Shown: piece after piece, positions 6,800 through 41,393 of the stretch
Position numbering within the stretch: the stretch's first letter is position 1
How the letters are laid out: each line of letters begins with the position of its first letter
Origin: Escherichia phage ECO340P2
Sequence record: OP172792
DNA length: 64,000 nt
Strand: one strand, 5' to 3'
The notes under the pieces: generated by a model
The model's input: the letters and a program-made list of their open reading frames with translations, nothing else
Database searches by the model: none
Told to the model about the DNA's origin: nothing
Made by a program: the position numbers and the translations under genes

Positions 6800-6805
6800 G
6801 GTTTA

Positions 6806-7178: not shown

Positions 7179-7235
7179 GCGGGAACTATTCCCGCCCTAC
7201 GTGTAACAGTTTACTGAAAATTAAATCCGTGTCAA
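7179..7235 (-). promoter_or_regulatory. early promoter (TTGACA-N16-TAAACT) + leader hairpin GCGGGAActaTTCCCGC
   Basis: read on minus strand. Confidence 0.6.
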
Positions 7236-7238
7236 GCT

Positions 7239-7702: not shown

Positions 7703-7726
7703 GGTGTTTTCCTCTTCTCTTTGTTA

Positions 7727-7788
7727 GGCGGTGGACCATTCCGCCGCCTTGATGTAATACAGTTTACTTTATTTTATTAAGATTGCAA
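7727..7788 (-). promoter_or_regulatory. early promoter (TTGCAA) + variant leader hairpin
   Basis: same hairpin variant as 4756-4776. Confidence 0.5.
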
Positions 7789-7794
7789 GCGGTT

Positions 7795-8010
7795 TTATGA
7801 AATAATTGTCAAAGTAAAATCATAAGACTGATTTAATTTATATTGTACTTTATTGCCGTAGTAGTCACCTTTACGTAAAGATCCGCGAATACCTATCACA
7901 TCCTTTACATCTTTAAGACTTTTTACGCCTGTAATGTCTTTATTGAAATACTCGTCATCTGAAAATAAAACTTGACTTGCATTTTTTAACAGTGTGCGGA
8001 TATTAGCCAT
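7795..8010 (-). CDS. hypothetical small early protein
   Basis: track ORF trimmed to ATG 8010. Confidence 0.5.
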   Translation of the reverse strand: MANIRTLLKNASQVLFSDDEYFNKDITGVKSLKDVKDVIGIRGSLRKGDYYGNKVQYKLNQSYDFTLTIIS

Positions 8011-8031
8011 CGTGATAATCTCTCTTCTTGT

Positions 8032-8089
8032 TGGCGGCACCATTGCCGCCCTACGTAATACAGTTTACTCTTTTTCTTTCCAGTGTCAA
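8032..8089 (-). promoter_or_regulatory. early promoter (TTGACA-N16-TAAACT) + leader hairpin GGCGGCAccatTGCCGCC
   Basis: canonical copy. Confidence 0.65.
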
Positions 8090-8098
8090 CAATCTTTT

Positions 8099-8326
8099 TC
8101 AGATTATTTCATCCAGGCATAACAGGCGATCAACGTTGAGATCGGTTAGGCTGATGGTTGGCACCTGGTAGGATTCGATGTACTCAACACTAGCCCATTG
8201 CCCGAAATTAGCGACCGCCCAGCTATTCAAGGAAGATTGCAGATCATCCCCTTTCTTCTCGGTGATAACTGCTACTGTCTGGAAGTTGCCAACGGTGCCG
8301 GATACGCGAACAATAATGATAGCCAT
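8099..8326 (-). CDS. hypothetical small early protein
   Basis: ORF with AGAAGAGAGAAA RBS. Confidence 0.55.
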   Translation of the reverse strand: MAIIIVRVSGTVGNFQTVAVITEKKGDDLQSSLNSWAVANFGQWASVEYIESYQVPTISLTDLNVDRLLCLDEII

Positions 8327-8350
8327 GATGATTTCTCTCTTCTGTTAGGC

Positions 8351-8405
8351 GGGGCGCTTGTCGCCCCTATGTGATACATTTTACACTAATTTAAAACGTT
8401 GTCAA
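8351..8405 (-). promoter_or_regulatory. early promoter + leader hairpin GGGGCGcttgtCGCCCC
   Basis: TGTCAA 8400-8405. Confidence 0.55.
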
Positions 8406-8414
8406 CTGCTTTTA

Positions 8415-8654
8415 TTACATTCCAACCATTGCGGCGCGGATACTGGATTTACTGAACTTGTAACCGTCTGGCGTTTTATCTTGTCCAGTTTGTTCCAGAA
8501 ATAACATCATATGACGGGCTGCATCATTACGATTAGTATTAGCGTCGATAAACTCTTTCGCCAACCGATATAATGACTCATCGTTATTAATCCAAAGGCT
8601 TACATTCCAATGAGTTTTATTTTTGTGACCTAAGAACATTTTTGATTTAGCCAT
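8415..8654 (-). CDS. hypothetical early protein
   Basis: track ORF trimmed to ATG 8654 downstream of leader hairpin. Confidence 0.5.
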   Translation of the reverse strand: MAKSKMFLGHKNKTHWNVSLWINNDESLYRLAKEFIDANTNRNDAARHMMLFLEQTGQDKTPDGYKFSKSSIRAAMVGM

Positions 8655-8688
8655 GATGTTAATCTCTTTTTCAGTGAGGCGGGAACTA

Positions 8689-8747
8689 TTCCCGCTCTCG
8701 ATGTAAAACATTTTACGCTTTTTCTTTCTGTTGTCAATGCTTTTTAT
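8689..8747 (-). promoter_or_regulatory. early promoter + leader hairpin GCGGGAActaTTCCCGC
   Basis: TGTCAA 8742-8747. Confidence 0.55.
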
Positions 8748-9109
8748 AAATCTTTTTTACGTTTAACATCGCTTGCATGACTGTATACAGTGATCCCATT
8801 GTCACGGCAAAAACGGGAAAGATATGTGCCGCGTGAAAACTCCTTGCCTTCAAGGTTGATAACCTTGCTAAATTCTTCCAGGGCGACGGTATCAAAATGA
8901 TCACCATAACCATATTGAAACGGAACGTTAACCACTTGAATCAATTTACCGCCGATCTCAACGTCAACCATTAAAGAAAAATATGTGTTACCGTAGGACT
9001 GTTGAAACCAGCGACGGGCGCTAATATGCACCGCCTCAATGCTGGATAGTTCAATTTTAGCAGTATTAGCCAAGGTAGCATAAGCGGAAACATTGATATT
9101 AATAGCCAT
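8744..9109 (-). CDS. hypothetical early protein
   Basis: ORF with AAAAGG RBS. Confidence 0.55.
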   Translation of the reverse strand: MAININVSAYATLANTAKIELSSIEAVHISARRWFQQSYGNTYFSLMVDVEIGGKLIQVVNVPFQYGYGDHFDTVALEEFSKVINLEGKEFSRGTYLSRFCRDNGITVYSHASDVKRKKDL

Positions 9110-9129
9110 GATGATAACCTTTTATTGTT

Positions 9130-9186
9130 GGCGGCACCATTGCCGCCCTACGTGATAAACTATACCAGAATTTTAAATAGTGTCAA
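9130..9186 (-). promoter_or_regulatory. early promoter + leader hairpin GGCGGCAccatTGCCGCC
   Basis: TGTCAA 9181-9186. Confidence 0.65.
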
Positions 9187-9192
9187 ATGTTT

Positions 9193-9555
9193 TTATTCGT
9201 AAATTTTGCCGCTTTCTACCCATACCGTAACACGGCGCATATTATCCCAAGTGTCTTGATCCAAGTTTAAGCCGTGCAACTCTTCGGTACTTCCCAGACC
9301 AGGTACCGCCTTGTTGTAAGTTGCATATAAGCGCCCTTGATACTCATACGCCAGGGTGAGATCCGTTTGAATCATCTTTTTAAGCATAGCGTTAAGCATC
9401 ATATTAGCGGCATGTTGATCACGTTTTAGCGGTAACATGTCAATAAGGGCGCGATAAGCTGAAATATGAATATCAACCGTTTCACGTGGTAAATTTTTCA
9501 TATCATCGCGGAAAGATACCAGATTAAACATGATAGTATTGATTTGCTTGCTCAT
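9193..9555 (-). CDS. hypothetical early protein
   Basis: ORF with AAAAAGGG RBS. Confidence 0.55.
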   Translation of the reverse strand: MSKQINTIMFNLVSFRDDMKNLPRETVDIHISAYRALIDMLPLKRDQHAANMMLNAMLKKMIQTDLTLAYEYQGRLYATYNKAVPGLGSTEELHGLNLDQDTWDNMRRVTVWVESGKIYE

Positions 9556-9566
9556 TGTGTTACCCT

Positions 9567-9627
9567 TTTTTGTTTTGGCGGGGAAGTATTCCGCCGCCCT
9601 ATGTGATACATCTTATCAGATTAAAAA
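9567..9627 (-). promoter_or_regulatory. early promoter (TTGACA-N16-TAAGAT) + leader hairpin
   Basis: read on minus strand. Confidence 0.6.
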
Positions 9628-9658
9628 ACGTTGTCAAGAATATTTTTAAAAATAATTT

Positions 9659-10055: not shown

Positions 10056-10084
10056 TGTAAACCTTTTATATAATTTCACTATGA

Positions 10085-10141
10085 GCGGCACCATTGCCGC
10101 CCTACGTGGTAAATATTATGCTAGTGGCGGCGATATGTCAA
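10085..10141 (-). promoter_or_regulatory. early promoter (TTGACA-N17-TAATAT) + leader hairpin
   Basis: read on minus strand. Confidence 0.6.
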
Positions 10142-10695
10142 AGGCTATTTTCAAAGTTTTCTAGCGCGATCCTTTTTTCTTCCTCTGTCGGCTGATAATC
10201 AGGAAAAGCATCAATACACAACAACGGCGGGATCTCTTCGTACTCTTCCTCTTCCGTTGTCTCCTCGTCTTCCTCCTGGGCTATGGCTGCAATTTTGGCT
10301 AATTTTCTTTCAGCTTGAATCAGTTTACCATCAAGTACATTTTTTGCCATGTTGTAAGCGGTCCAGGTGATGCGCTTATTTTCCAGGGCTTCATCAAGCG
10401 CCGCTATCTTGCTGGGATATTCATCAAGGACACGAAAAGCCGGATCAACCTTGTACAAAGGATTATCTTTCGCGCCGTCGCTAGGATCTTCCGCACTGGA
10501 TAAATCAGCGTTACCATTTGCCAGCCAACCAGGGCGCACATGACGCGCTTTTACGTTGCCGTTACTACGTGCTAACCTGTTACCTATTTGCTCACCACTA
10601 TAGCCCGTTGATTCATCGACAAGATGATCGGGAATGATGCGCGGATCATCTGCCTCATGCTTTACCCAAGACTGGATCACATATTCACGCCCCAT
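10138..10695 (-). CDS. hypothetical early protein with acidic stretch
   Basis: ORF; ATG 10695 with AAGGTGG RBS; EEDEETTEEEEYEE run. Confidence 0.55.
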   Translation of the reverse strand: MGREYVIQSWVKHEADDPRIIPDHLVDESTGYSGEQIGNRLARSNGNVKARHVRPGWLANGNADLSSAEDPSDGAKDNPLYKVDPAFRVLDEYPSKIAALDEALENKRITWTAYNMAKNVLDGKLIQAERKLAKIAAIAQEEDEETTEEEEYEEIPPLLCIDAFPDYQPTEEEKRIALENFENSL

Positions 10696-10696: not shown

Positions 10697-10954
10697 TTAA
10701 CCACCTTTTTTCAACAATTGACATACTTTAAAAAGACTTGCGGAATCCTTGCAAGGGTAGAAAGATGTACGATAGTCACGTACGCCAACCTTGCGGATCT
10801 CGATGTTCTCGCATGTTGTTTGATCAAAGATATTTATTTCATCACGCCCCCTTATATAAACATAGTGAGGATGGATCAAAGCATACTTAGCTAATCTGTA
10901 AAAAGCGTTATCTTTGAACGCGATCACGTGACCTTTTAACTTGATGTAAAACAT
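10697..10954 (-). CDS. hypothetical early protein
   Basis: ORF with TAAGGTGA RBS. Confidence 0.55.
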   Translation of the reverse strand: MFYIKLKGHVIAFKDNAFYRLAKYALIHPHYVYIRGRDEINIFDQTTCENIEIRKVGVRDYRTSFYPCKDSASLFKVCQLLKKGG

Positions 10955-10978
10955 TTTGTCACCTTACAAATAGCGGGA

Positions 10979-11034
10979 ACTATTCCCGCCTTATGCAACA
11001 TATTAGTAAATTATTCGCTAATGTCAAGCCTTAA
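10979..11034 (-). promoter_or_regulatory. early promoter + leader hairpin GCGGGAActaTTCCCGC
   Basis: TGTCAA 11029-11034. Confidence 0.55.
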
Positions 11035-11303
11035 AGCAAAAATGCTACATCTTGCGCTTTTAGTGTAGTGTCAACCATTTTCGGGCTTTTATAATCAACA
11101 AACCGCGCGGTTTTTTCAATAGCGAAACCTAAATAATCTTGCTTGTTGAAATTACATTCTTTCTTAAATGTTTCCCGCGCCACGGCGATCGCTGCGTCCA
11201 GGGATAAACGACCATCAATATTAATATTAGCGAAAGATCCGCCACCGCTCATAGGTTTACCAGTGGTGCCAGTTACAATCATTGTTGCGCTATATGATGC
11301 CAT
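11031..11303 (-). CDS. hypothetical early protein
   Basis: ORF with AGAAGAGAGAAAAA RBS. Confidence 0.55.
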   Translation of the reverse strand: MASYSATMIVTGTTGKPMSGGGSFANINIDGRLSLDAAIAVARETFKKECNFNKQDYLGFAIEKTARFVDYKSPKMVDTTLKAQDVAFLL

Positions 11304-11326
11304 GATTTTTCTCTCTTCTGTTAGGC

Positions 11327-11382
11327 GGGGCGCTTGTCGCCCCTATGTGATACATCTTATCAGGTTGTTGCCTGTTGTCAAT
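11327..11382 (-). promoter_or_regulatory. early promoter + leader hairpin GGGGCGcttgtCGCCCC
   Basis: TGTCAA 11377-11382. Confidence 0.55.
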
Positions 11383-11387
11383 ACTTT

Positions 11388-11585
11388 TTATTCAAGCCCT
11401 ACGATATGCAAAACACGGCGATCAGCAATAGCGTGCTGGTCTTCTGTTATAACGCACATTTCTACCAGTGAATCAAGAAAGGAAAGCACAGTAATATATT
11501 CGTCATCGGGTACACTCATTTCATTAGTACCGTTTACCATTACGTTGATTTGTCCTGCTTTCGCTACAATGTGCAATGTTGCCAT
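11388..11585 (-). CDS. hypothetical small early protein
   Basis: ORF with GGAG RBS. Confidence 0.5.
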   Translation of the reverse strand: MATLHIVAKAGQINVMVNGTNEMSVPDDEYITVLSFLDSLVEMCVITEDQHAIADRRVLHIVGLE

Positions 11586-18966: not shown

Positions 18967-18994
18967 TTGACATGCTTTTTAGTCCTGTTAAGAT
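18967..18994 (+). promoter_or_regulatory. rightward promoter TTGACA-N16-TAAGAT
   Basis: hexamers read directly; 30 nt upstream of gene at 19025. Confidence 0.6.
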
Positions 18995-30463: not shown

Positions 30464-31069
30464 ATGCAACATAGTGTAGTAGTTAACATGCCAAATAACG
30501 GGGATAAATCTTTTGGTATCCCTGCTAAAAAAGTGTGGAAAGCCCATTTTCATCTTACTTTATCTAACGTTAGTTCTGAAGAGTTGATGGAAGCAGCTAA
30601 GATCATTGGTGCCAAATGCACAACAATTGATTTACATCGGGATACAAAGTCTCAACGTGATCGTATGCTAACAAAGTATCAAAGCGATCTCGACACTACT
30701 TTAATGTTGCAGTGTGTAGAAAAACTTGAGAATGCAGGTTTCAATGTTGTTCGTTACAAACTGGAACGAATGTTTAAACATGTTGCCTGTGTTCTTTTCA
30801 TGGATCTAAGTAAAGAAAATTATGGAGAAGTTCACATTAAGACTTCAGCAAGTGATCCTGAAGTAGAAACAAACTTCTTCCGTATTTCTTCTAATGTTGA
30901 AGAAATTGACTACCGATTTTATAATGCTCGCTTATATTCCGCAGAAGATAAGTTGCGTTTCAATGAAGCATATGATATGCTCTTGAACAGCGGGATACAG
31001 ATAAAAGGCTACCACATAGAACAAGTTGTGGTAGACAGTAACTTAAATCTTGATGCATGGTGGGCCTAA
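30464..31069 (+). CDS. hypothetical protein (weak 2H-phosphoesterase-like HxTx motif)
   Basis: single HLTL motif near N-terminus; second motif not canonical. Confidence 0.45.
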   Translation: MQHSVVVNMPNNGDKSFGIPAKKVWKAHFHLTLSNVSSEELMEAAKIIGAKCTTIDLHRDTKSQRDRMLTKYQSDLDTTLMLQCVEKLENAGFNVVRYKLERMFKHVACVLFMDLSKENYGEVHIKTSASDPEVETNFFRISSNVEEIDYRFYNARLYSAEDKLRFNEAYDMLLNSGIQIKGYHIEQVVVDSNLNLDAWWA

Positions 31070-31070
31070 T

Positions 31071-31727
31071 ATGACAATAAAACATATCTCTTTTGATGTA
31101 TGGAACACTCTTATTTCTACCAATCAAAACTATGCAGATGCACGTACGCATACTATCGCCACTTATGGTAGAATGTCTGAACGTGCAGCCAAAGAAGCAT
31201 ACAAAGATGCCAAAGAAATCATGGATAATGCTGCACTAAATGGGTGTGCAGAGGGTGTAGCATATGCATGGAATATGTTGGGAAGAAAGATAGGTTTAAC
31301 CCCTGTAGAATCTGCACAAATGCGTTTTGAGTGTGAACAATGGTTTCTTAAATTTCCTCCACATATTGCCTTAGATTTGCCAGTTTGTTTGCTATATTTG
31401 TCTGGTAAATATGACCTTAGTATTAAAAGCAATACTAATTTTATATCTGGGGATATTTTGCGTCGTGCTTGTATGTTTGACAGTTGGAATTGTTTTGAAT
31501 TTATGCATTTTTCAGACGAACATCTGTTGTGTAAACCAGATCCTAGATTCTTTGTTAGGACAGCCACATATTCAAGCATTCCTTTGAGGGCTGAAGAGAT
31601 TTTACATGTTGGGGACAGCGAAGAATTTGATGGTAAATGTGTTGACATAGGGATTAACTTCTGTCATATTAAGAACCCTAACGACTTACTAGAGAAACTT
31701 AAAAGAGGAGAAATTGTAAATGCGTAA
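31071..31727 (+). CDS. HAD-superfamily hydrolase (phosphatase-like)
   Basis: HAD motifs: FDVWNTL (I), SIKSN (II), KPDP (III), VGDSEEFD (IV). Confidence 0.65.
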   Translation: MTIKHISFDVWNTLISTNQNYADARTHTIATYGRMSERAAKEAYKDAKEIMDNAALNGCAEGVAYAWNMLGRKIGLTPVESAQMRFECEQWFLKFPPHIALDLPVCLLYLSGKYDLSIKSNTNFISGDILRRACMFDSWNCFEFMHFSDEHLLCKPDPRFFVRTATYSSIPLRAEEILHVGDSEEFDGKCVDIGINFCHIKNPNDLLEKLKRGEIVNA

Positions 31728-32547
31728 TCAAACTCAAATTTTTGCAAACAAATTTGATGATCTGGAAACTGCTACTTTTGATATCAAAGACTATTCAAAA
31801 TTGAAATTTGGTAGTAACCAGGCTGCGCGTCGTATGGGTAAAGAATTGGCCCTTCAGTTTTTTGCTCAAGTAGCAATGAAACATATTGGGGAACAATTTG
31901 TTATCATCCCTTCTCCTTATAACCATGTGCATAATGCTGCAACAATGATGACAGATCATTTTATTAATTACTTTAATATGTTGCAAGCACAATATGATCA
32001 AGGTCGTTCAGCAGAACTGGATATTATTCATCGTAAAGTTAGCTATATCAACGATTATGGTTTCTTGGATAAAGCTAGTCGTAAGAAACTTATTGATGGG
32101 GATACATTCTACTGCAACAAAGAATTCTGGGGTGATAAGAAGCTTGTGTTCATTGATGATGTAAATATCACTGGAACTCATGAAGACAAACTGATTGAGA
32201 TCCTTGATGAAAATCAAGTTAAAAATGATGTTTACTTCTTGTATTTTGCAAAATATGAAGGTAATCAAGCAGATACCGAAGCTAAACTGAATTTTAACTA
32301 TATTAATACACCAGAAGCATTTGTTAAAATGATTAATGAAGAACGTGATGCACAGTGTCTTGTTCGTCCTATTAAGTATCTTATGGGTCAAAATCACGAA
32401 GACTTCAAAATCATTCTTAGCCAATTGCCACACTACTATGTAGAGCAGCTTTTCTTCGGATGTTTGGGAGAAGGTTACAACCGAATTGCAAAGTATGCTG
32501 AAAACTTTGAGTTCTTGGATCGTTACACAAAACAACATATTCTGTGA
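31720..32547 (+). CDS. type I phosphoribosyltransferase-fold protein
   Basis: PRPP-binding loop KLVFIDDVNITGTHEDK. Confidence 0.6.
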   Translation: MRNQTQIFANKFDDLETATFDIKDYSKLKFGSNQAARRMGKELALQFFAQVAMKHIGEQFVIIPSPYNHVHNAATMMTDHFINYFNMLQAQYDQGRSAELDIIHRKVSYINDYGFLDKASRKKLIDGDTFYCNKEFWGDKKLVFIDDVNITGTHEDKLIEILDENQVKNDVYFLYFAKYEGNQADTEAKLNFNYINTPEAFVKMINEERDAQCLVRPIKYLMGQNHEDFKIILSQLPHYYVEQLFFGCLGEGYNRIAKYAENFEFLDRYTKQHIL

Positions 32548-32560
32548 TAAGGATCTAAAA

Positions 32561-33046
32561 ATGCTTAAAATGAAAACAGGTAATCTTATTGATGCCGCTA
32601 AAGCAGGGGAAGTAACGGTTATTGCTCATTGTTGTAATTGTATGTGTAACATGGGGGCAGGTATTGCCCCACAAATAAAATATGCGTTTCCATATGCATA
32701 CGAAGCAGATTTAGCTACAGGAGCAGGAAACCAGAAAAAGCTTGGTTCTTTTAGTTTAGGAGAACCAGAAGATTATCCTAATCCTATGGTATACAACCTT
32801 TATGGACAATATCGTTATGGATATAATAGTAAAGGTCGTCAATTAGATTATGATGCACTGTATGATGCTCTTGCAGCTATGGCAATGGACTTACACAATT
32901 ACGATAAAGGAGATCAACCAGCACATAAGATTGGTCTACCTATGATAGGTGCAGGTCATGCTGGAGGTAATTGGGCTATCATTGAAGTCATGATCAAAGA
33001 AACTTTAGTAAAAGCTGGTCACGATGTGACTATTTATAAACTTTAA
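32561..33046 (+). CDS. macro-domain protein (TARG1/Poa1p/DarG-like)
   Basis: VIAHCCNCMCNMGAGIAPQIKYAF matches recalled TARG1-type macro signature (hC.s.d..MGaGIA..F). Confidence 0.65.
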   Translation: MLKMKTGNLIDAAKAGEVTVIAHCCNCMCNMGAGIAPQIKYAFPYAYEADLATGAGNQKKLGSFSLGEPEDYPNPMVYNLYGQYRYGYNSKGRQLDYDALYDALAAMAMDLHNYDKGDQPAHKIGLPMIGAGHAGGNWAIIEVMIKETLVKAGHDVTIYKL

Positions 33047-33058
33047 GAGGAGATTAGT

Positions 33059-33280
33059 ATGGGTGTTTTTGCAGGTATTGTTGCGGTGGTAGGGTTTTTT
33101 GTTATTGCTTTTATGCTTAGTTTGATCCCAGCTTGGTTACTGTTGCTGGCTTACAACTATGTTGCTGAAGTTATGGGTCATGCAGATATCACTGTTCCAG
33201 TAACCTTCTGGACCGTGGTTTGTGTTTCGTTTATTCTGGCTGTATTACGAGGAATCTTTTCCTCTAGTTCTTCTAAGTAA
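33059..33280 (+). CDS. small membrane protein
   Basis: two hydrophobic helices; GAGGAG RBS. Confidence 0.55.
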   Translation: MGVFAGIVAVVGFFVIAFMLSLIPAWLLLLAYNYVAEVMGHADITVPVTFWTVVCVSFILAVLRGIFSSSSSK

Positions 33281-33300
33281 ATTTAAAACAGATGGAGGGC

Positions 33301-33525
33301 ATGATGAAAGTAGCTGTAGTAGAAACGGATACAGACTATCATGGAGCTTATGTTGACACCAAGATAATGGAATTCCCTTCTATGTTGGAGGCTGAAACCT
33401 GGTGTGATACAAGGTCTAGTAAAGGAAGTGCTTATTTTATCGACAAAAGCTTAACCAAAGCTTTGAACGAAGAGGAAAAGCCTAAGAAAGAGCCAGAAAA
33501 TAATATCAGCTTATCTTGGTATTAA
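33301..33525 (+). CDS. hypothetical protein
   Basis: ORF with GGAGGG RBS. Confidence 0.5.
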   Translation: MMKVAVVETDTDYHGAYVDTKIMEFPSMLEAETWCDTRSSKGSAYFIDKSLTKALNEEEKPKKEPENNISLSWY

Positions 33526-33528
33526 CTG

Positions 33529-33587
33529 TTGACAAGCTTTTTAAAAAGAGTAAGATATATCACATGAAGCGGGGAATAGTTCCCCGC
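33529..33587 (+). promoter_or_regulatory. promoter TTGACA-N16-TAAGAT + leader hairpin GCGGGGAAtagTTCCCCGC (same module as early genes, plus strand)
   Basis: hexamers and hairpin read directly; 18 nt upstream of terC RBS. Confidence 0.6.
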
Positions 33588-33604
33588 AAAGAGAGGAGAA
33601 AAGA

Positions 33605-34579
33605 ATGCAACTTGGTTTCCCAATTATTGATGTAGTTGTTTTAGTTGGTATTTTAGCATTGTCTATTGGTATCGATTTCTTTGGTCATAAAGAAAATAAA
33701 GAAATTGGAATCAAATCTGCTTTGCTTTGGTCTGTTTTTTGGATTGCTTTAGCTTTAGGGTATTACGCATTCATTTGGGTAGAACATGGTAAAGAATTTG
33801 CCGCGCTTTTCCTAAGTGGTTATGTGTTGGAAAAGAGTCTTTCTGTAGATAACCTAATGGTGTTCATGGCAATTTTTGCAAGCTTTGGAATTAAAAGCAC
33901 ACATCTCCAACATAAGATCTTACTTTGGGGGATTGCAGGAGCCATTGTCTTCCGAGGTATTTTTGTTGCAGCAGGCACCGCTTTGTTTAACCTTCATTGG
34001 TCGGTCCAAGTGTTGTTTGGTCTGATTGTAGCTTGGTCTGCCGTTGCTATTATCAAAGGGGGTGACGAAGAAGAGGATATTGATTACTCTAAACATTGGG
34101 CTGTTCGTTTAGTAGGTAAAGTTCTGCCTATGCACAATGCACTGGATGGTGAAAAGTTCATTACTATTAAGAATAGTATTAAATATGCAACCCCTGCTCT
34201 TCTTTGTGTGTTTGTTATTGAGCTTACAGATATTGTCTTCTCTTTTGATTCAGTTCCGGCTGTGATTGGTGTGACACAAGAACCTCTGCTAGTTTATTCT
34301 GCAATGCTGATGGCTGTTCTTGGCCTACGTGCACTTTTCTTTGTGTTAAGTGTAGCTGTGAAATATTTGGTTCACTTAGAGAAAGCTGTTGCTGTGGTTC
34401 TGGTGTTTGTTGGTGCTAAACTTATGTATCACCCGTTCGGTGAAACACTTCATGCCAAGTGGTCATTCCTCCCGCATGATATCTCTCCTAACGTAAGTTT
34501 AATGATTGTTCTAGGCACATTAGCTCTTGGTGTTATTGCAAGCTTTATCTTTCCTGAAAAAGAAGAAGCCACTGTTTAA
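33605..34579 (+). CDS. terC: TerC-family integral membrane protein
   Basis: multiple TM helices; SLSVDNLMVF and ELTDIVFSFDSVPAVIGVT signatures. Confidence 0.8.
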   Translation: MQLGFPIIDVVVLVGILALSIGIDFFGHKENKEIGIKSALLWSVFWIALALGYYAFIWVEHGKEFAALFLSGYVLEKSLSVDNLMVFMAIFASFGIKSTHLQHKILLWGIAGAIVFRGIFVAAGTALFNLHWSVQVLFGLIVAWSAVAIIKGGDEEEDIDYSKHWAVRLVGKVLPMHNALDGEKFITIKNSIKYATPALLCVFVIELTDIVFSFDSVPAVIGVTQEPLLVYSAMLMAVLGLRALFFVLSVAVKYLVHLEKAVAVVLVFVGAKLMYHPFGETLHAKWSFLPHDISPNVSLMIVLGTLALGVIASFIFPEKEEATV

Positions 34580-34584
34580 TAGAT

Positions 34585-34610
34585 GAGCCTCCTTCGGGAG
34601 GCTATTTTAT
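34585..34610 (+). terminator. intrinsic terminator AGCCTCCttcgGGAGGCT + T-run
   Basis: 7-bp GC stem, tetraloop, ATTTTAT. Confidence 0.65.
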
Positions 34611-34621
34611 AGGAGAGACTT

Positions 34622-34972
34622 ATGAGTAATTTTGATGAAATTCAAGAACTTGTTTGGGATTTATGTGGTGATGTGGATTACGTTTCGGACTATCTTTCAA
34701 AAGTTTACCCTGGGGTAAGCGTTATGATTGTGACAAAAGATCCAATTAACTTACCTCCTAATGTGGTAGCTTGTTGTGGAAGTGGTTCAGGAGAAGTGGA
34801 GCCTGTATCTCGTTGGGAATTAACTAAAGCCGTTTCAAAACGAAACGGTGAAGTTTTGAATATTGATATCGAGCAAATATGGACTTCTCCAGCAGCCAAA
34901 TGGAATGATCCAAATGGTTGGGATTTGTTCTTTTGGGATAATGAAACTGATGATGAGGTATTTTTAAAATGA
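34622..34972 (+). CDS. hypothetical protein
   Basis: ORF with GGAGAG RBS. Confidence 0.55.
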   Translation: MSNFDEIQELVWDLCGDVDYVSDYLSKVYPGVSVMIVTKDPINLPPNVVACCGSGSGEVEPVSRWELTKAVSKRNGEVLNIDIEQIWTSPAAKWNDPNGWDLFFWDNETDDEVFLK

Positions 34973-35155
34973 AATACTTGTTGGTTGTGTTTGAAAATAT
35001 TTGTTTTGCAATAGGTTTGTTTGTTGTAATTTTTGTATTGACAAGCGTAATCAACGGCAGTAAAGTGAGTTTATACCGAGATGGAGAGCAGCTTTATTGC
35101 TTCTCTGGAGATTTCAAACACAGATGTATTAATAGTCAAAACGAGGAAAGCAAAT

Positions 35156-35593
35156 ATGAAAAAACTAGCCCTGATTTTAATTGGTTGTATCTTTTTAACA
35201 GCTTGCGAGGATGAAACAAATCCTGCACAATACCAACAACCTCCTCAACAATACGCTCAACAAGGATCTGACGGAGATACAACTATTATCAACAATGGTG
35301 GCGGCTCTAGTAGTAGCGGTGTTGGGGAGTTTGCTACAGGTATGTTGTTAGGGCATATGATGAGCGGTGGTAGTAATCGTGGTGGCGGAGATTATAACGA
35401 TAACAGAACGATTATTAATAAACATTATAACACACCTAAACCAAAGACTAATTTTTATGGTAAACCTAAACAAGAGACAAAAACTTATGAAAAGCCGAGA
35501 CAAACTTTTAAAACAAATAGTAGCTATACAACTCGTAAATCTTACAGTAGCCCTTTAAGTAAAAAGAGTTCATCTCGTAGCAAGCGACGTTAA
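35156..35593 (+). CDS. lipoprotein with Gly/Ser-rich and basic C-terminal regions
   Basis: MKKLALILIGCIFLTAC lipobox after trimming to ATG 35156. Confidence 0.6.
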   Translation: MKKLALILIGCIFLTACEDETNPAQYQQPPQQYAQQGSDGDTTIINNGGGSSSSGVGEFATGMLLGHMMSGGSNRGGGDYNDNRTIINKHYNTPKPKTNFYGKPKQETKTYEKPRQTFKTNSSYTTRKSYSSPLSKKSSSRSKRR

Positions 35594-35607
35594 TAAGGAG
35601 AAAAACA

Positions 35608-36201
35608 ATGACAATTTCTATTCGTACTTCCATCGTAGGTGTTAAAAGGTTGCCTAATGCTTTGCAAATCACACGTGCTTTGAGGGATACGTTCTCTGCT
35701 GTGGATGAGCATAAAATGCTTGATAATCTCTCAAATTGGCCCTATTTTCATTATTTTAAAAATGAAGATGACGAGTTTATAGATGCTGTTTCTTATGGTT
35801 ATGATTTCGGTAAGGAGGTTTCTCCTGAAGAATTTGTAGCTACGGTATTCCCAAATGGTTTTCCTACTCGCAGCAAACGTAAAAAAGGACCAAAAAACAA
35901 GAAACGTGCTATTAATAAAGCTACCATTTTCTTTACTGATGGGACACAGTATACGATTAAAGATTTTGAAGAAGTATCTTATACAGCAGGTGGAAATCTT
36001 TCTTTCTACACCATCAAAAAACAAAACGCTACGTTCAGCCATGTTTCTAACATGATTGAAATGTTAGTAGAAGATATTGAAAGCGTGGCTGTGTTAGGTA
36101 TGCATAAAAGCTTTTTAATTACAAATATTTCAGATTTCAGTGCACGTTTATCTAGCCCTGATTTTGAAGCCACGACCACGCATTTCACTTTTAAGGTGTA
36201 A
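35608..36201 (+). CDS. hypothetical protein
   Basis: ORF with AAGGAG RBS. Confidence 0.55.
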   Translation: MTISIRTSIVGVKRLPNALQITRALRDTFSAVDEHKMLDNLSNWPYFHYFKNEDDEFIDAVSYGYDFGKEVSPEEFVATVFPNGFPTRSKRKKGPKNKKRAINKATIFFTDGTQYTIKDFEEVSYTAGGNLSFYTIKKQNATFSHVSNMIEMLVEDIESVAVLGMHKSFLITNISDFSARLSSPDFEATTTHFTFKV

Positions 36202-36204
36202 GTT

Positions 36205-36795
36205 ATGTATACCGAGAGAGACTTGCAACTCTTGTGGTGGGAAGTGATGCAGGAAATAAAAGAAGATTTTCCTGTTTACTACAACATGTTACGTGAAGCA
36301 GGATATAAAGCTTGCGTTAGAAACAAAGTGAATAACTCTTTTGGTTGGTGCAACTACCGAGATAAAATTGTTGTTGTAAATTGGCACTTGCATAAGAACT
36401 CTACAAGAGATATGATCGTGGATACAATGAAGCATGAAATTGCTCATGCTATTGATGGTTGTATGGGTAAGTTTAGTAGGCACGGTGCTCATTGGCAAAA
36501 ACTGGCAGCAGAATTAGGGGCTAATCCTAAAGCCACTTCCAAAGAGCCGTTGAACCACGAATATAAATATGTTCTTGTTCTGGTAGATAGGTTTGCGACA
36601 AGGTGTGTTAGAGGTTATAATCGTAAACCTAATCGCATGTACCCAGGTAAGCAACCTAATATGTGGTTGAAATCAGATAAAGAAGGGACCGAAGGAAAAT
36701 TATGGTTGTATAAATGGGACGATTGGGTTAAAGTAGCTAAAGAGTACGGTGTTTCACCATATATAAGAGATGCAGAAGAGGAGAATGAAGAATGA
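36205..36795 (+). CDS. SprT-like zinc metallopeptidase-domain protein
   Basis: HEIAHAIDG (HExxH) followed by HGAHW. Confidence 0.55.
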   Translation: MYTERDLQLLWWEVMQEIKEDFPVYYNMLREAGYKACVRNKVNNSFGWCNYRDKIVVVNWHLHKNSTRDMIVDTMKHEIAHAIDGCMGKFSRHGAHWQKLAAELGANPKATSKEPLNHEYKYVLVLVDRFATRCVRGYNRKPNRMYPGKQPNMWLKSDKEGTEGKLWLYKWDDWVKVAKEYGVSPYIRDAEEENEE

Positions 36796-37904
36796 CAAGT
36801 CCATTTTTAAAAGCAGCTACTGGTGGTCAGAAGAAGTCTGAAATGAGTGTATTCGCTGCAACAACAGATGCAAGTAAATCTGTATTCGCGCCAAGCGTGT
36901 TAGATGCCAGTCCTGTTTATGCACCAGCCGCACCGCAAGAAGTCCCAGTTTTGCCTTCTATGACCCGACAAGAGATCGAAGAGATTGGGGCAGAGGCAGG
37001 AACAACCTTGCGTTCCTTGAATGCCGAGGTATTAAAACATCAACGTAGTAATCAAGGCGATCAGATGAGTGAACGACTCACAGCTTTGATTAAACAGGCA
37101 AAACAACTTGATCCAAACTCTATTAAACAAAGCAAGGGTATTACTAAACTCATTAAAAAGGTCATGGGTATGAAAGAAGACCTGTTCGGGGAGTTTGATA
37201 ATGTTAATAACCGTATTGAAGAGTTAGTAAAGAACCTTCAAATGGATATTCGCAAAGAAGAAGATTCCTTAGTATATCTTGAAAAACTACATCAAGCTAT
37301 TGGACAATATGCTGCAAGTTTGAACCGAGATATGCAGCTTCTAACAGCAACCTATGAAAAAGAAGAGCAAGCTTTGGCTGCTCTTCCAGAAGATGCAGTA
37401 GAACAGCGACAAGTGATCCGAGATACTTTGGATCTTCTGGAGATTCGTATTGCGGATTTAAAAGCATTGCGCCTACTGTGTGTCCAAATGGGACCACGTG
37501 TACAAGGTATGCAAAAAGTTTCTGCAAGCTTAATGCGATCTGCGCGTAACATAGTAAATAATGTTATCCCTGCTTACTCTGCTAACTTCTCAATGTATAT
37601 TGAGAGCTTACGTCAAATGAAAGCCGCAGAAACACAGAATAACGTTCTTGATGAATTTAACCTGGCAATTAAATTAGGTAGTGATTTGGCTACACAAAAT
37701 CAGATTGAAGCCGCAGCATTGGCTAACCGTCAAGTGTTAGATATTGATACTCTGCGACACGATCAGGAAAACTTAGTTAAAATGCTGGAAGAAACAAATC
37801 GCATCAATACAGAAGCCCGTGCTGCTCGTGTTGATTATATTAATGAAGTTCAATCTCTGGAAGACGGGATGGTAGCTGCTGTAAAACGAGGACTTGGTAA
37901 ATGA
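36792..37904 (+). CDS. helical protein, possibly TelA/KlaA-like toxic-anion-resistance family
   Basis: 370-aa largely helical protein within Ter-like cluster; family call from context and composition only. Confidence 0.35.
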   Translation: MTSPFLKAATGGQKKSEMSVFAATTDASKSVFAPSVLDASPVYAPAAPQEVPVLPSMTRQEIEEIGAEAGTTLRSLNAEVLKHQRSNQGDQMSERLTALIKQAKQLDPNSIKQSKGITKLIKKVMGMKEDLFGEFDNVNNRIEELVKNLQMDIRKEEDSLVYLEKLHQAIGQYAASLNRDMQLLTATYEKEEQALAALPEDAVEQRQVIRDTLDLLEIRIADLKALRLLCVQMGPRVQGMQKVSASLMRSARNIVNNVIPAYSANFSMYIESLRQMKAAETQNNVLDEFNLAIKLGSDLATQNQIEAAALANRQVLDIDTLRHDQENLVKMLEETNRINTEARAARVDYINEVQSLEDGMVAAVKRGLGK

Positions 37905-38095
37905 GAATCCGTGTTTATATGATTGATGATAGCTTTGGTGTCCGTTATGATGACGAAAAACGATTCGCGCCGATTAGCGGCATACATCCCCTAAGTGTTT
38001 TGGCAGCTTGTCGTGATAAATATCTCTATGAAGCTTGTAATCATTTTGGTTTTGAGCTTCTTTCAGATGTAGAGTTTAATGAGGAGGAAGGATGA
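37901..38095 (+). CDS. hypothetical small protein
   Basis: ORF, coupled. Confidence 0.5.
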   Translation: MRIRVYMIDDSFGVRYDDEKRFAPISGIHPLSVLAACRDKYLYEACNHFGFELLSDVEFNEEEG

Positions 38096-38265
38096 AAATA
38101 TTACGCGTGAATATTGAAACCGCTTGGTGCGGATGTAATGAGGTTGTGGATATTGAAATTGAAGATGATATGTCTAAAGAGGATATAGAAGATCTTGCAC
38201 ACGAAACCTTTCAGGACTATTGTAGCTATGGGTTCCATATTTTAGAGGAGGAAGAAGATGTATAA
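38092..38265 (+). CDS. hypothetical small acidic protein (57 aa)
   Basis: hand-translated ORF with GAGGAGGAAGG RBS. Confidence 0.45.
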   Translation: MKILRVNIETAWCGCNEVVDIEIEDDMSKEDIEDLAHETFQDYCSYGFHILEEEEDV

Positions 38266-38656
38266 TCCAACAGGTATTCTTTTAAAACTCACAGTAACAG
38301 ATCCTACTCTTTTCACCAAGTTAGTCAGTGGTGAAGTCTATGAAGTAATGAAAGATGACGACGGTTGGTGTTATCTTTGTGGCTACTACCTCTGTGATGC
38401 AGAAGAGTTAGAATCCATTACAACTAAAGGTTTTTATGAAGAACCAGGCTTCCGTGTGGAAACTACACAGAAACCTGATACCATTACGTTGACTCGACAG
38501 GAACTGATCACAATCATTGAAGATGCTTTTATTGATGGTTGGAATACACAAGATAATGATTGGGGTGGACCTGAAGCTTTTCTAGAACATCATAAAGCTT
38601 ACGGAGAATTTTGTGAAACCACTGTAGCTCTTGATAATCTGAAGGAGGGTTTGTAA
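38258..38656 (+). CDS. hypothetical protein
   Basis: ORF with GGAGGAAG RBS. Confidence 0.55.
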   Translation: MYNPTGILLKLTVTDPTLFTKLVSGEVYEVMKDDDGWCYLCGYYLCDAEELESITTKGFYEEPGFRVETTQKPDTITLTRQELITIIEDAFIDGWNTQDNDWGGPEAFLEHHKAYGEFCETTVALDNLKEGL

Positions 38657-39219
38657 TGGGTTGTTTTAGCTTTTTGTGTAAGGAATCGGGCAAAGCTGCC
38701 CTTTCTACTTCTTTCGACGGATCGCCTTGCTATCTCTTTCTTTTGAAAGATGGTGTTGTTATTGAAGAGATGTATGGCAACTACGATAGTTATGGTTGTG
38801 TTTTCTCTGGAAAGGAGGACGAAAATGGCGTTCGTGAACGGTTTGATTGGGTTATGGATTGGAGTAAGGTTTGTGATTTGATGCATTCCTCAAATCCAAG
38901 GGACGGTATCGCTATGGTGCTGGAAGAGTACTTTACAGGTGAAATCCCTACAGAACAATCTGACAGAGATCCTAACCAAGGTTGGGGTGATGGTGAAGAA
39001 GATCCAGATTGTTTTTTCAGCACAGAAAAGAATAAGTTTAAACGTGTTGACAACCCTTATCACAAAGTGCATAATACTCTCATTGAAACAGAAGATGACA
39101 AGATGGAAATTGAAGAAGATGATCCTCTTGTAACACTTCCTATAAGCGAGTTACAAAAGATTACTAAAGAAGCTTACGATTTGGGCTTCAAAATTGGTAG
39201 AGGAGGTATGCGTGTTTAG
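38656..39219 (+). CDS. hypothetical acidic protein
   Basis: ORF with GGAGGG RBS. Confidence 0.55.
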   Translation: MGCFSFLCKESGKAALSTSFDGSPCYLFLLKDGVVIEEMYGNYDSYGCVFSGKEDENGVRERFDWVMDWSKVCDLMHSSNPRDGIAMVLEEYFTGEIPTEQSDRDPNQGWGDGEEDPDCFFSTEKNKFKRVDNPYHKVHNTLIETEDDKMEIEEDDPLVTLPISELQKITKEAYDLGFKIGRGGMRV

Positions 39220-39484
39220 ATTCAATATTCAAGAAGAAAAGTATAAGGATTTACCTGTTCCTTTCGAAGATCTTGACGTAGGGGATACATTCATGTATTA
39301 TGCTGCCTATGAAGATGCAGGGTTGGATACTTACATTAATTTGGTGTTCATTAAAAGTTCTCCAAACAGCGCAATCTGCATCAGTGGATCGCAACGAGGT
39401 TATACACATTGTATCCCGCCAGATACAAATATGGTGGAAGTAGATTTAGAAGTTACCAATATCACACTTAAGAAGGAGAAATAA
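39194..39484 (+). CDS. hypothetical protein, paralog of 40506..40775
   Basis: shared DLDVGDTF motif and C-terminal ..VT(N/G)ITLK. Confidence 0.55.
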   Translation: MVEEVCVFRFNIQEEKYKDLPVPFEDLDVGDTFMYYAAYEDAGLDTYINLVFIKSSPNSAICISGSQRGYTHCIPPDTNMVEVDLEVTNITLKKEK

Positions 39485-39485
39485 T

Positions 39486-40280
39486 ATGTCCGAGAAAATC
39501 AGCCTGAAAAAACGTCAAGAAAACCTTGCTTTCTCTCTGAAAAAGAATAAGAACCTGAATGAAGGTAAGATTGTTCTTCGTGTAGCATGTGCTCTAGATA
39601 TTTCTGGTAGTATGCATGGTCTATATGCTCGTGGAGTAGTGAGTGATTTTGTAGGTAAACTGCTCCCTTTTGGTATGCTGTTCGACGATAATGAACAAAT
39701 TGATATGTGGGCCTTCAATACAAGTTCTCAAGAGCTTACTCCAGCAACAGCAGACGTTTACGATGATTATGTTGGTAAATGTATGCGTAATGTTCGTATC
39801 GGAGGTGGAACAAATTACGCCCCTGTAATGGCAGATATCTACGATGAGTATTTTGGCACTGTTACCAAATATATTACCACTAAACAAGTGGTACAAGAGG
39901 AGGCTCCAAAGAAAGGCTTCTTTAATCGTCTGCTTGGTAAAACTGAAACAGTATCTGTAGAGCGTGAAAAGGTTGTAGCTGTATCTGAACCAGGTGCTGA
40001 CGTTACCCCTGGTGTTGTATTCTTCCAGACGGATGGTGAGAATGGTGATCCTAGTGCTGTTCGTCGTCTTATTGAAGAGAATAAGAATAAACCTATTTAT
40101 TGGTTCATGGTTGGCGTCGGTAATGAGAAGTTTGGCTTCCTGAAAGAACTGGCAAATGCTTATGATAATGTTGGTTTTATTGGCATTAAAGATTTAGACT
40201 TGACAGATTCAGAGCTTTATGACAAACTCTTATCTGAAGAGTTCGGAGAGTGGGTTGTTAAAGTAGGTGCTAAAAAATGA
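39486..40280 (+). CDS. von Willebrand factor A (vWA) domain protein, TerY-like
   Basis: MIDAS motif ALDISGSMHG; N-terminal KISLKK shared with TerD gene. Confidence 0.65.
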   Translation: MSEKISLKKRQENLAFSLKKNKNLNEGKIVLRVACALDISGSMHGLYARGVVSDFVGKLLPFGMLFDDNEQIDMWAFNTSSQELTPATADVYDDYVGKCMRNVRIGGGTNYAPVMADIYDEYFGTVTKYITTKQVVQEEAPKKGFFNRLLGKTETVSVEREKVVAVSEPGADVTPGVVFFQTDGENGDPSAVRRLIEENKNKPIYWFMVGVGNEKFGFLKELANAYDNVGFIGIKDLDLTDSELYDKLLSEEFGEWVVKVGAKK

Positions 40281-40525
40281 TCGACGAGCTTGCCTCTCAA
40301 GTCGTAGAAAATTATTGGCGCGAGAGAGAAGCTTTCATTATGCGCAGTCTCAAAGAATATTTCATTGGGACTGTGCGGATGGAAGATATTGTAAGTAGAG
40401 TAGAGATTCATGTATGGCCTGATTATGAAGAATGGGTTGACAAAGAAAATGAAAATGCTATAATTCTTCGTATATACAAACCGGAGATAACATTAGGAGG
40501 AAGAAGTGTTAAACTTCGAAATTGA
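40277..40525 (+). CDS. hypothetical protein
   Basis: ORF, coupled. Confidence 0.5.
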   Translation: MIDELASQVVENYWREREAFIMRSLKEYFIGTVRMEDIVSRVEIHVWPDYEEWVDKENENAIILRIYKPEITLGGRSVKLRN

Positions 40526-40775
40526 TGAGCAAAAAATAAATAAACGATGCCTTACCATTAAAGATTTGGATGTAGGAGATACTTTCGTCTATGAAAATGC
40601 ATTTGACGAAAATGGTTTAGACCTTAGTGAAGTCATTGTTTATTTAAAAGTAGATGATGGGGAAAATGATTATTCTGCTGTAGAATTAAACCATCATGCA
40701 CAATTAGTAGCAATCCAAAACACATCTAAGCTTTTGGAAGTAGAATTGACTGTAACTGGTATTACACTTAAATAA
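40506..40775 (+). CDS. hypothetical protein, paralog of 39194..39484
   Basis: DLDVGDTF motif. Confidence 0.55.
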   Translation: MLNFEIDEQKINKRCLTIKDLDVGDTFVYENAFDENGLDLSEVIVYLKVDDGENDYSAVELNHHAQLVAIQNTSKLLEVELTVTGITLK

Positions 40776-40790
40776 TAGAGGAGACAAAAG

Positions 40791-41393
40791 ATGACTGATA
40801 AAATTTCCCTGAAAAAAGGCTCTAGCGAAAAAATTTCCCTGAAGAAAGTTGCTCCGGCTCTGAAAGAACTGCGCCTGGAATTCTCTTGGAAATCTGATTC
40901 TAAACTGGATCTGGATGTAAGTGCACTGGTTTGTCGTCATAATGCCGCTGGCAATCCTGAAATGCTGTCTGCACGTCATCTGGTTTGCTATGCTAACAAG
41001 TTTGATCCTGAACGTTCTACCTTTGCTGGTGACGATGTTCGTGATGGGACTGGCAGCATGGAGCAGATTGATATTACTCTGGCTAAAATCTCTCCCGATG
41101 CACAAGAGATTGCCTTTGTTCTGACCATTGATGATGATACAGGTCTGAAACGTTTTGGTCATGCTTCTGAAGGTATGCTTAAAATCTTCGACTCCGAGTG
41201 TAATGTGGAAATTCTGGATTTTGACTTCCTGGCTCCTGAAGTAGCTGGCAACACAATCTGCCACGTGGCTTCCTTGGTTCGTGAAGATGGTGAATGGAAG
41301 CTGAAAGCATATGGTGTAGGTAAAGCTGGTCTGGATATTTGTGATGTGGTGATGGCCTTCGGTGGTAAAAAAGAATGGTATGAATGTCCATAA
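40791..41393 (+). CDS. terD: TerD-domain stress protein
   Basis: KISLKKG...ISLKK, DLDVSAL, GDDVRDGTG, MLKIFDSE, C-terminal WK..A.G.G.AGL. Confidence 0.75.
   Translation: MTDKISLKKGSSEKISLKKVAPALKELRLEFSWKSDSKLDLDVSALVCRHNAAGNPEMLSARHLVCYANKFDPERSTFAGDDVRDGTGSMEQIDITLAKISPDAQEIAFVLTIDDDTGLKRFGHASEGMLKIFDSECNVEILDFDFLAPEVAGNTICHVASLVREDGEWKLKAYGVGKAGLDICDVVMAFGGKKEWYECP

Follow-up and report, generated by a model that had tools for sequence, protein, structure and literature searches.

A promoter and leader hairpin upstream of terC in a Phapecoctavirus phage as a member of a compact expression cassette family

The closest described counterparts of the element considered here are the PeSLs of the T4-like phages RB49/phi1, PST/T4, and nt-1/KVP40, intergenic cassettes of ~90–100 bp that combine a strong sigma-70 early promoter with a G/C stem-loop, lie among ORFans, and have been implicated in modular shuffling; their stem-loop is located upstream of, between, or over the -35 and -10 elements and has been shown to terminate transcription (Arbiol et al. 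2010, PMC2839356; Comeau et al. 2014, PMC4122927). The subject of this report is a 76-nucleotide (nt) segment, consisting of a promoter, a short leader with a hairpin, and a ribosome-binding site (RBS), that directly precedes the gene terC in a 64,000-nt stretch of the genome of Escherichia phage ECO340P2 (sequence record OP172792). This whole stretch is referred to as the window, and positions are given in its numbering unless a phage is named.

Other known systems share parts of this arrangement. Short 5′ stem-loops stabilize Escherichia coli mRNAs, as in the hairpin of the ompA 5′ untranslated region and in the T7 gene 10 leader, and such stabilization is reportedly the subject of work from the Belasco laboratory. 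Bacterial alx is controlled by a long leader, the yybP-ykoY Mn2+ riboswitch or pH-responsive PRE. The morons of lambdoid phages, a term associated with Hendrix and Juhala, are units of promoter, gene, and terminator.

A 4-kb query around the terC site matched 72 phage records and identifies the window as DNA of a Phapecoctavirus phage, that is, a phAPEC8-like myovirus of the Stephanstirmvirinae; the top matches, 94–97% identical, are Escherichia phages such as vB_EcoM_01, Schickermooser, and ESCO13. Because the host is E. coli, promoters of the form TTGACA/TAnnnT are taken here as sigma-70 promoters.

The terC segment and the early cassette family

Judged by its match to a profile built without it and by the motifs that it shares with the early region, the 76-nt terC segment is a true member of the phage's compact expression cassette family. 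The elements of the site are the following.

33529–33534, + strand: -35 hexamer TTGACA, a consensus match, followed by a 16-nt spacer
33551–33556, + strand: -10 hexamer TAAGAT, the same hexamer as in the early modules at 11381 and 9637
33557–33568, + strand: conserved leader or initial transcribed sequence ATATCACATGAA (early consensus GTATCACRTAGG)
33569–33587, + strand: leader hairpin GCGGGGAAtagTTCCCCGC with a perfect 8-bp GC stem, GCGGGGAA/TTCCCCGC, and loop TAG, from folding and covariation
33592–33598, + strand: purine-rich RBS AGAGGAG, 6 nt 5′ of the ATG; ESCO13 has an annotated RBS at the corresponding position
33605–34579, + strand: terC coding sequence with ATG at 33605, 324 aa, Alx-subfamily TerC membrane protein (Pfam, NCBIfam)

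The profile was built with nhmmer from a seed of 15 minus-strand modules from which the terC copy was excluded. In the window it returns 19 minus-strand sites, 4 of them outside the seed, and it matches the terC site at 33520–33597 on the + strand over profile positions 4–80 of 93, with E=1.4e-9 and 33.8 bits. This is the sole significant match on the + strand of the window, the next having E=0.09. The same profile was applied to the complete genome of Schickermooser (151,194 bp, put together from four pieces), in which it finds 24 sites on one strand, at 137.8–148.7 kb amid small early ORFans, and exactly one site on the other strand, again at terC (E=2e-9). A looser promoter and hairpin at Schickermooser 40036, adjoining thyX, has another leader and does not match the profile significantly.

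Motif counts can be compared with expectation. TTGACA-N15-19-TAAGAT occurs four times (0.09 expected), TAnnnTnTATCACRT six times (0.13 expected), and the 13-nt hairpin core GGGAATAGTTCCC six times in the window (0 expected), the last two each being found in five early modules and at terC. The terC copy has the same 16-nt spacer and TAAGAT hexamer as early modules, and 9 of 12 leader positions are equal. The sequence-only reading of this stretch had proposed that a module with the architecture of the early modules, and with almost the same leader, stands immediately upstream of terC and occurs once on the opposite strand. This description stands: every element is found within 33529–33604, the profile match and the shared core and start-region pattern bear out the likeness, the RBS is followed by the ATG of a gene whose product is TerC, and the search of both strands yields one + match in the window and one off-strand match in complete Schickermooser.

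The terC product matches Pfam TerC (3.4e-40) and the NCBIfam Alx subfamily TIGR03718 (317 bits, cutoff 246). As RNA, the leader hairpin folds with -13.1 kcal/mol (z = -3.97), and the folds leave most of the segment 3′ of it unpaired, although GGAG within the RBS pairs weakly with downstream coding sequence. Transcription by sigma-70 polymerase preferentially starts at a purine 6–8 nt after the -10 element that is preceded by a pyrimidine, and A33562 or A33564 is the predicted start of terC.

A canonical Rho-independent terminator at the terC leader is rejected, as there is no U tract (the 8-nt tail of the hairpin, AAAGAGAG, contains 0 T) and the site is absent from the terminator scan; in the same window, the mean number of T in the 8-nt tail is 1.8 for leader hairpins compared with 5.2 for terminator-like hairpins. 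A riboswitch or other known RNA family as the terC leader is rejected as well: Rfam gives no match at the gathering threshold in the whole window and, at E≤10, only noise and no riboswitch family in 33400–33720. The TATCAC of the start region equals a lambda operator half-site but has no symmetric partner, and the resemblance is dismissed.

Hairpin and promoter scans of the window show the early modules as closely spaced minus-strand cassettes at ~2.2–11.4 kb, in each of which the order is an A-rich stretch, TTGACA, spacer, TAnnnT, start region (G)TATCACRTAG(G), GC-rich hairpin, purine-rich RBS, and ATG. The spacer is 16 nt in 13 of 15 early modules. Their hairpins have 6–9 bp and lie 8–14 nt after the -10 element (mostly 10–12), the terC hairpin lying 12 nt after it, and the distance from hairpin to ATG, which includes the purine-rich RBS, is ~17–29 nt across cassettes. 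The loops (3–5 nt) and stems vary between modules of one genome, with GCGGCAatggTGCCGC, GCGGGAAtagTTCCCGC, and GGGGCGacaagCGCCCC as recurring hairpin classes, and most stems have GCGG at the start and CCGC at the end. The ~10 nt between the -10 element and the hairpin (GTATCACRTAGG) are conserved to roughly the same degree as parts of the promoter, and this start region is common to terC and to modules in Justusliebigvirus and Klebsiella phages. A lineage-specific match of the terC leader to the early leaders of its own genome, which would be a sign of a trans-acting factor, is weakened as a proposal by a Klebsiella phage that carries both leader types, CACATAGG and TCAAGG, in its early region. 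The modules of the window are listed below.

11301–11391, minus strand: early module with hairpin GGGGCGacaagCGCCCC (profile E=1.7e-14; in the seed)
10954–11033, minus strand: early module with GCGGGAAtagTTCCCGC and a T-rich tail, hairpin at 10973–10989 (profile, scans)
10073–10151, minus strand: early module with GCGGCAatggTGCCGC (profile, hairpin scan)
9553–9647, minus strand: early module with the bulged hairpin GGCGGCGGAAtacTTCCCCGCC (profile, promoter scan)
9107–9196, minus strand: early module (profile E=5.2e-20)
8652–8748, minus strand: early module (profile, scans)
8324–8415, minus strand: early module (profile, scans)
8008–8098, minus strand: early module (profile, scans)
7700–7797, minus strand: early module outside the seed (profile E=1.9e-7)
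7157–7244, minus strand: early module (profile, scans)
6732–6809, minus strand: early module (profile, scans)
6251–6341, minus strand: early module whose hairpin has an internal C·A mismatch (profile, scans)
5975–6061, minus strand: early module (profile, scans)
5605–5680, minus strand: early module outside the seed, containing GGGAATAGTTCCC (profile E=4.7e-5)
5100–5189, minus strand: early module (profile, scans)
4731–4826, minus strand: early module outside the seed (profile E=6e-11)
4294–4386, minus strand: early module outside the seed (profile E=1.1e-12)
3503–3586, minus strand: early module (profile, scans)
2188–2275, minus strand: early module (profile, scans)

Two further observations concern this series. 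At 7531–7494 on the minus strand, a promoter TTGACT-N-TACAAT has its -10 element in the loop of a 9-bp hairpin, TATAGCGCC/GGCGCTATA, a PeSL geometry unlike that of the other modules. The 'terminator' annotated by ARNold at 138526–138544 in Schickermooser is an early-module leader hairpin.

Conservation, exchange, and the surroundings of terC

The conservation sample comprises Phapecoctavirus (Schickermooser, ESCO13, tuntematon, and phiWec190), Justusliebigvirus (alia and Serratia phage KKP_3264), a Klebsiella-phage lineage (phi1_175008), and four IMG/VR contigs. In all Stephanstirmvirinae sampled, terC is preceded by the consensus promoter and hairpin and followed by a hairpin with a UUCG loop. 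The stems differ by lineage and comprise GCGGGGAA/TTCCCCGC, GCGGGGAG/TTCCCCGC, GCGGAGGA/TCCTCCGC, AAGGGAGAG/CTCTCCCTT, AAGAGGGAG/CTCCCTCTT, and AAGAGGGGG/CTCCCTCTT. Pairs were counted in six orthologous terC leaders instead of in a MAFFT alignment of all modules, in which stems of unequal length are out of register. For the six distinct leaders RNAalifold yields one 7-bp helix, in which five of the seven pairs are changed on both sides and none is broken. All 42 of 42 cells are paired, and the covariation score is reached by 0 of 500 shuffles; slid controls, with the 3′ arm moved by 1–3 columns, give 52–71% pairing and at most one compensatory pair. The two cells that are not Watson–Crick are G·U on the sense strand. 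Sense-strand G·U pairs are seen in phiWec190 and in Klebsiella phage phi1_175008, and they recur in the early modules. Going by these compensatory changes, the terC hairpin is conserved as a structure across the sampled genera.

The search of IMG/VR for terC-leader variants gave four loci in a protein-seeded scan, and a DNA-pattern scan gave 64 loci, nearly all of them chance matches, with three true ones, all known already, and no new terC-leader variants. An exact look-up of the TerC protein among transcript-like contigs found no record. Two records labeled as Campylobacter phages, MG065650.1 ('Campylobacter phage B15') and MG065639.1 ('Campylobacter phage A150'), are ~94% identical here to E. 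coli Phapecoctavirus/Justusliebigvirus, and their host labels look doubtful.

The promoter module was not found at the TerC genes of the more distant Grimontviridae, Ounavirinae, and Schitoviridae. Because the association of module and terC is kept across the subfamily and is absent from the TerC genes of these distant phages, it is old within the subfamily and not the result of a recent hop. A recent movement of the terC copy, implied by the sequence-only reading, is contradicted by the same arrangement of promoter, hairpin, terC, and hairpin in Phapecoctavirus, Justusliebigvirus, and the Klebsiella-phage lineage.

Several observations bear on exchange at the module. The window itself carries an insertion that is missing from related records:

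33281–33528, + strand: window-specific insertion of 245 bp with a 77-aa ORFan (coding sequence 33292–33525)

The insertion lies between the stop codon of the upstream gene and the terC promoter, its right edge appearing to fall in the promoter spacer, and none of the 72 related phage records contains it. The ORFan has no Pfam match, and homologues are found only at 44–46% identity, in another region of Klebsiella Stephanstirmvirinae phages. The insertion displaced an A-rich UP-like stretch upstream of the -35 hexamer, and relatives keep the A-rich stretch caacaaaataagtg. In tuntematon (MN850618.1, 38943–40714, compared with window positions 33468–34660) the body of terC is only 60–70% identical to that of the window, whereas the promoter, leader, first ~100 nt, and terminator are 93–100% identical, so that the tuntematon gene looks like an allele exchanged while its conserved flanks were kept. 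In both tuntematon and phiWec190, no part of the locus is better conserved than the promoter and leader. Early modules that are orthologous between the window and Schickermooser differ in hairpin class, and an early gene of a Klebsiella phage is preceded by a terC-type stem, GCGGGGAgcggTTCCCCGC. The proposal that the module is portable is supported by its ~20 copies, the swaps of hairpin class, the ORFan insertion at the promoter, and the apparent terC swap in tuntematon. Recombination at any shared 90-bp repeat could also account for these exchange observations.

The 3′ end of terC is marked by a second hairpin:

34586–34610, + strand: 3′ hairpin AGCCTCCttcgGGAGGCT followed by ATTTTAT, a terminator or 3′-end stabilizer (-20.3 kcal/mol, z = -3.96)

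This hairpin begins 7 nt past the terC stop codon, and its Schickermooser copy is annotated as a terminator by ARNold. Among relatives (loci L003–L006, L012, and L015–L018) its loop is always UUCG, once UCCG, and its stem shows the compensatory series AGCCTCC/GGAGGCT, AACCTCC/GGAGGTT, and AAGCCCC/GGGGCTT. Because the U tract is weak in several relatives, the hairpin may be a 3′-end stabilizer as much as a terminator. The RBS of the next gene follows directly past it, with no promoter between.

The presence of a terminator-like hairpin after the terC stop codon implies that the promoter most directly serves terC alone and not a whole cluster. By its layout, terC looks like a self-contained cassette of promoter, 5′ hairpin, gene, and 3′ hairpin within a co-directional block. 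The surrounding Ter-type cluster, as given by the Schickermooser annotation and a Pfam scan, encodes PRTase_3, a HAD hydrolase, a weak macro-like protein, TerC, an SprT-like protein, TelA, vWA-TerF, and TerD. The cluster extends over ~31050–41393 (Schickermooser gp208–gp227) in this virulent phage and adjoins anaerobic ribonucleotide reductase genes. On its TerD side it has its own perfect promoter TTGACA-N16-TATAAT at 40437–40464 (+), without a leader hairpin. This promoter is located inside the open reading frame (ORF) 40277–40525, upstream of a small ORF and TerD (40791–41393). Another near-perfect sigma-70 promoter on the + strand, likewise without a leader hairpin, TTGACA-N16-TAAGAT at 18967–18994, stands at the head of the + strand block.

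Several other terminator-like hairpins are present in the + strand block, which is for this reason not a single operon. The sequence-only reading had placed the module inside a long rightward operon; the co-directional + strand block is confirmed, and the single operon is not. It had also linked the Ter-like cluster as a whole to early expression, a claim at odds with the terminator-like hairpin 7 nt past the terC stop and with the separate promoter at 40437 on the TerD side. That earlier interpretation was thus partly right, in recognizing a true and exchangeable family member, and overreached with respect to the whole Ter cluster and to recent movement.

Proposed role and alternatives

The role that seems on balance probable for the cassette is transcription by sigma-70 polymerase from infection onward, with a 5′-proximal hairpin that would stabilize or insulate the mRNA. 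Host sigma-70 RNA polymerase would read the near-consensus promoter on entry of the DNA, without a phage factor, and terC would be transcribed from the start of infection, besides any read-through from upstream genes. Transcripts would start at ~33562–33564 and, in the early modules, at the R of CACRTAG, and the hairpin would then be 5–7 nt from the mRNA 5′ end at terC and ~3–4 nt from it in the early modules. In this position it would hinder 5′-end-dependent decay (RppH, RNase E access or scanning) and would keep the RBS in a defined, open context, and the 5′ hairpin and the UUCG hairpin would together bracket a discrete, stable terC message of ~1.05 kb. Varying stems and loops in which pairing is kept, a fixed distance to the start, and a largely unpaired RBS fit a generic 5′-proximal stabilizer or insulator, and the differences in loops and stems between modules of one genome argue for a generic structural role. 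We infer the early timing of the terC cassette from the sigma-70 consensus only, and its promoter activity, start site, and stabilizing role are likewise putative.

A number of considerations weigh against this role. Strict 5′-terminal protection usually allows few unpaired nucleotides, and the predicted unpaired 5′ segment at terC, 5–7 nt, is longer than is usually protective. The conserved ~10-nt start region is unexplained by a pure stabilizer model. The hairpin at 10973–10989 has a T-rich tail, and its Schickermooser orthologue at 138526–138544 (tail ATTTGT) is annotated as a terminator by ARNold; at least one module hairpin may thus also serve as a terminator. DNA or antisense RNA could form the helix just as well: the asymmetry between the strands, with G·U and A·C in 9 and 2 distinct cases that are not independent (most G·U share one motif) and with one C·A mismatch, favors sense-strand RNA but is suggestive only. 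Finally, in the literature on phAPEC8, phi92, and rV5-type phages, no transcriptome, start-site, half-life, or time-course data were found.

The insertions and swaps described above raise the alternative of a PeSL-type element, in which the hairpin attenuates or terminates incoming transcription, the promoter restarts it, and the ~90-bp unit is chiefly a homology patch for gene shuffling. We regard this as unlikely, if not to be neglected. The PeSLs of RB49/phi1 join sigma-70 early promoters to stem-loops, flank ORFans, and mediate indels (PMC2839356; PMC4122927), and comparable features here are the ORFan inserted exactly at the terC promoter, the apparent swap of the tuntematon terC allele between conserved flanks, the exchange of hairpin classes between orthologous modules, the PeSL-like hairpin around the -10 element at 7531–7494, and the one leader hairpin with a T-rich tail that is annotated as a terminator in Schickermooser. 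Shuffling near the modules, however, may simply mirror shared homology and need not be a selected function. Moreover, the hairpin lies 3′ of the -10 element and of the predicted start, so that the module's own transcripts and read-through would be affected alike, and a terC tail with 0 T, in a family with a mean of 1.8 against 5.2 in terminator-like hairpins, argues against termination.

A function at the level of translation is rather unlikely as the explanation of the hairpin, which would in that case keep upstream or read-through RNA off the RBS and allow equally high initiation on any transcript. Such an insulator agrees with the ~17–29 nt between hairpin and ATG and the purine-rich unpaired tract between them, and with the presence of the hairpin whether the mRNA starts at its own promoter or upstream, but the spacing between the -10 element and the hairpin is no less constrained (mostly 10–12 nt), which points to a role at the 5′ end. 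The translation insulator and the stabilizer models are compatible and not exclusive.

The start region, which the stabilizer model does not explain, is central to an improbable alternative in which start region and hairpin are a tag for a phage regulator, either an operator in the DNA that overlaps +1 and serves in early shut-off or a site in the RNA to which an antiterminator, a nuclease, or a translational repressor would bind, and terC belongs to one early regulon. The ~10-nt start region is roughly as well conserved as parts of the promoter and is shared with Justusliebigvirus and Klebsiella-phage modules, most stems have the form GCGG...CCGC, and the layout is loosely like boxA plus boxB of lambdoid nut sites; yet loops and stems are too variable for a factor that binds the hairpin specifically, the stems of terC lineages, such as AAGAGGGAG/CTCCCTCTT, being entirely different, and the Klebsiella-lineage terC leader differs (TGTCAAG). 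In addition, ~20 separately promoted copies are unlike the two nut sites of lambdoid phages, and no candidate regulator was identified, no search for an N-like protein having been made. In its fuller and equally improbable form, a phage factor would read the tag and might protect tagged mRNAs against decay induced by the phage, silence them at the switch from early to middle expression, or modify RNA polymerase, terC being the only gene from elsewhere in the genome to be enrolled in this immediate-early program; if this were true, membrane or metal homeostasis by TerC would be required within the first minutes after infection.

Chance resemblance, or a decaying relic without function at terC, is effectively refuted by the profile match (E=1.4e-9) and the covariation and is most improbable: although the region has no excess of loose sigma-70-like matches over shuffled sequence (37 compared with 35.4), the segment is kept across genera with compensatory changes, and in tuntematon and phiWec190 its promoter and leader are better conserved than the rest of the locus.

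The literature on phAPEC8, phi92, and rV5-type phages yielded no prior description of the modules. The rV5 paper gives sigma-70 promoters and terminators and does not give leader hairpins, and in GenBank records only RBSs or ARNold terminators are annotated at the terC locus. The module is apparently an undescribed regulatory feature of a known phage group, a modest detail that overturns nothing known. If the cassette works as proposed, that is, as a sigma-70 promoter with a stabilizing 5′ hairpin, it would provide a reading rule for Stephanstirmvirinae genomes, with ~20 or more early units per genome that are driven by host RNA polymerase and capped by a hairpin. The gene terC would then be the only gene outside the early region to be wired for immediate, autonomous expression, a concrete starting point for explaining the presence of Ter/Alx genes in large virulent phages. 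The concept behind PeSLs, composite cassettes that serve in both expression and gene shuffling, would be widened beyond T4-like phages, with the hairpin within the mRNA. The 76-nt unit, with its natural series of compensatory stems, would also be a useful part in studies of how 5′ hairpins affect mRNA in E. coli.

Relation to known systems

The terC leader resembles the ompA and T7 gene 10 stabilizers in having a short, stable GC hairpin near the predicted 5′ end followed by an open RBS, and in a stem that is free to vary while pairing is kept. It differs from 5′ stabilizers in the predicted single-stranded 5′ segment of 3–7 nt, which is at or beyond the usual protective length. As in bacterial alx, the gene downstream is an Alx-subfamily TerC gene, but the phage leader is ~40 nt long, contains one hairpin, and matches no riboswitch up to E≤10. 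In the phage gene, a putatively constitutive strong promoter has apparently taken the place of metal or pH sensing.

The location of terC between its own sigma-70 promoter and a terminator-like hairpin in a co-directional block is like that of a moron, as is its accessory membrane protein product, a likeness drawn from sequence only. The phage, however, is virulent, so that prophage expression is not at issue, and all 72 close records, as well as the other sampled Stephanstirmvirinae, contain terC together with its flanks, a distribution unlike sporadic insertion. The conserved linear motif followed by a short hairpin just past early promoters is reminiscent of a lambdoid nut site, but the leader has no boxA-like CGCTCTT, the loops and stems vary, and there are ~20 copies, each with its own promoter.

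The correspondence with PeSLs is the closest. Both families consist of recurring intergenic cassettes of ~90–100 bp that contain an AT-rich upstream stretch, a sigma-70 promoter close to consensus, a G/C stem-loop, and a Shine–Dalgarno sequence with start codon, and both are concentrated among small ORFans of the early region and are associated with indels and replacements between close relatives. In the modules, however, the hairpin follows the -10 element and lies in the transcribed leader, only 7531–7494 having PeSL geometry, and the terC hairpin lacks a U tract. Moreover, the modules occur in Stephanstirmvirinae and not in a T4-like lineage, and one copy is found on the opposite strand, away from the early region, at a conserved metabolic or membrane gene. 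A further PeSL trait is the formation of mini-circles by recombination between copies. The module family is classed here as a variant of the PeSL kind of composite cassette and not as a PeSL.

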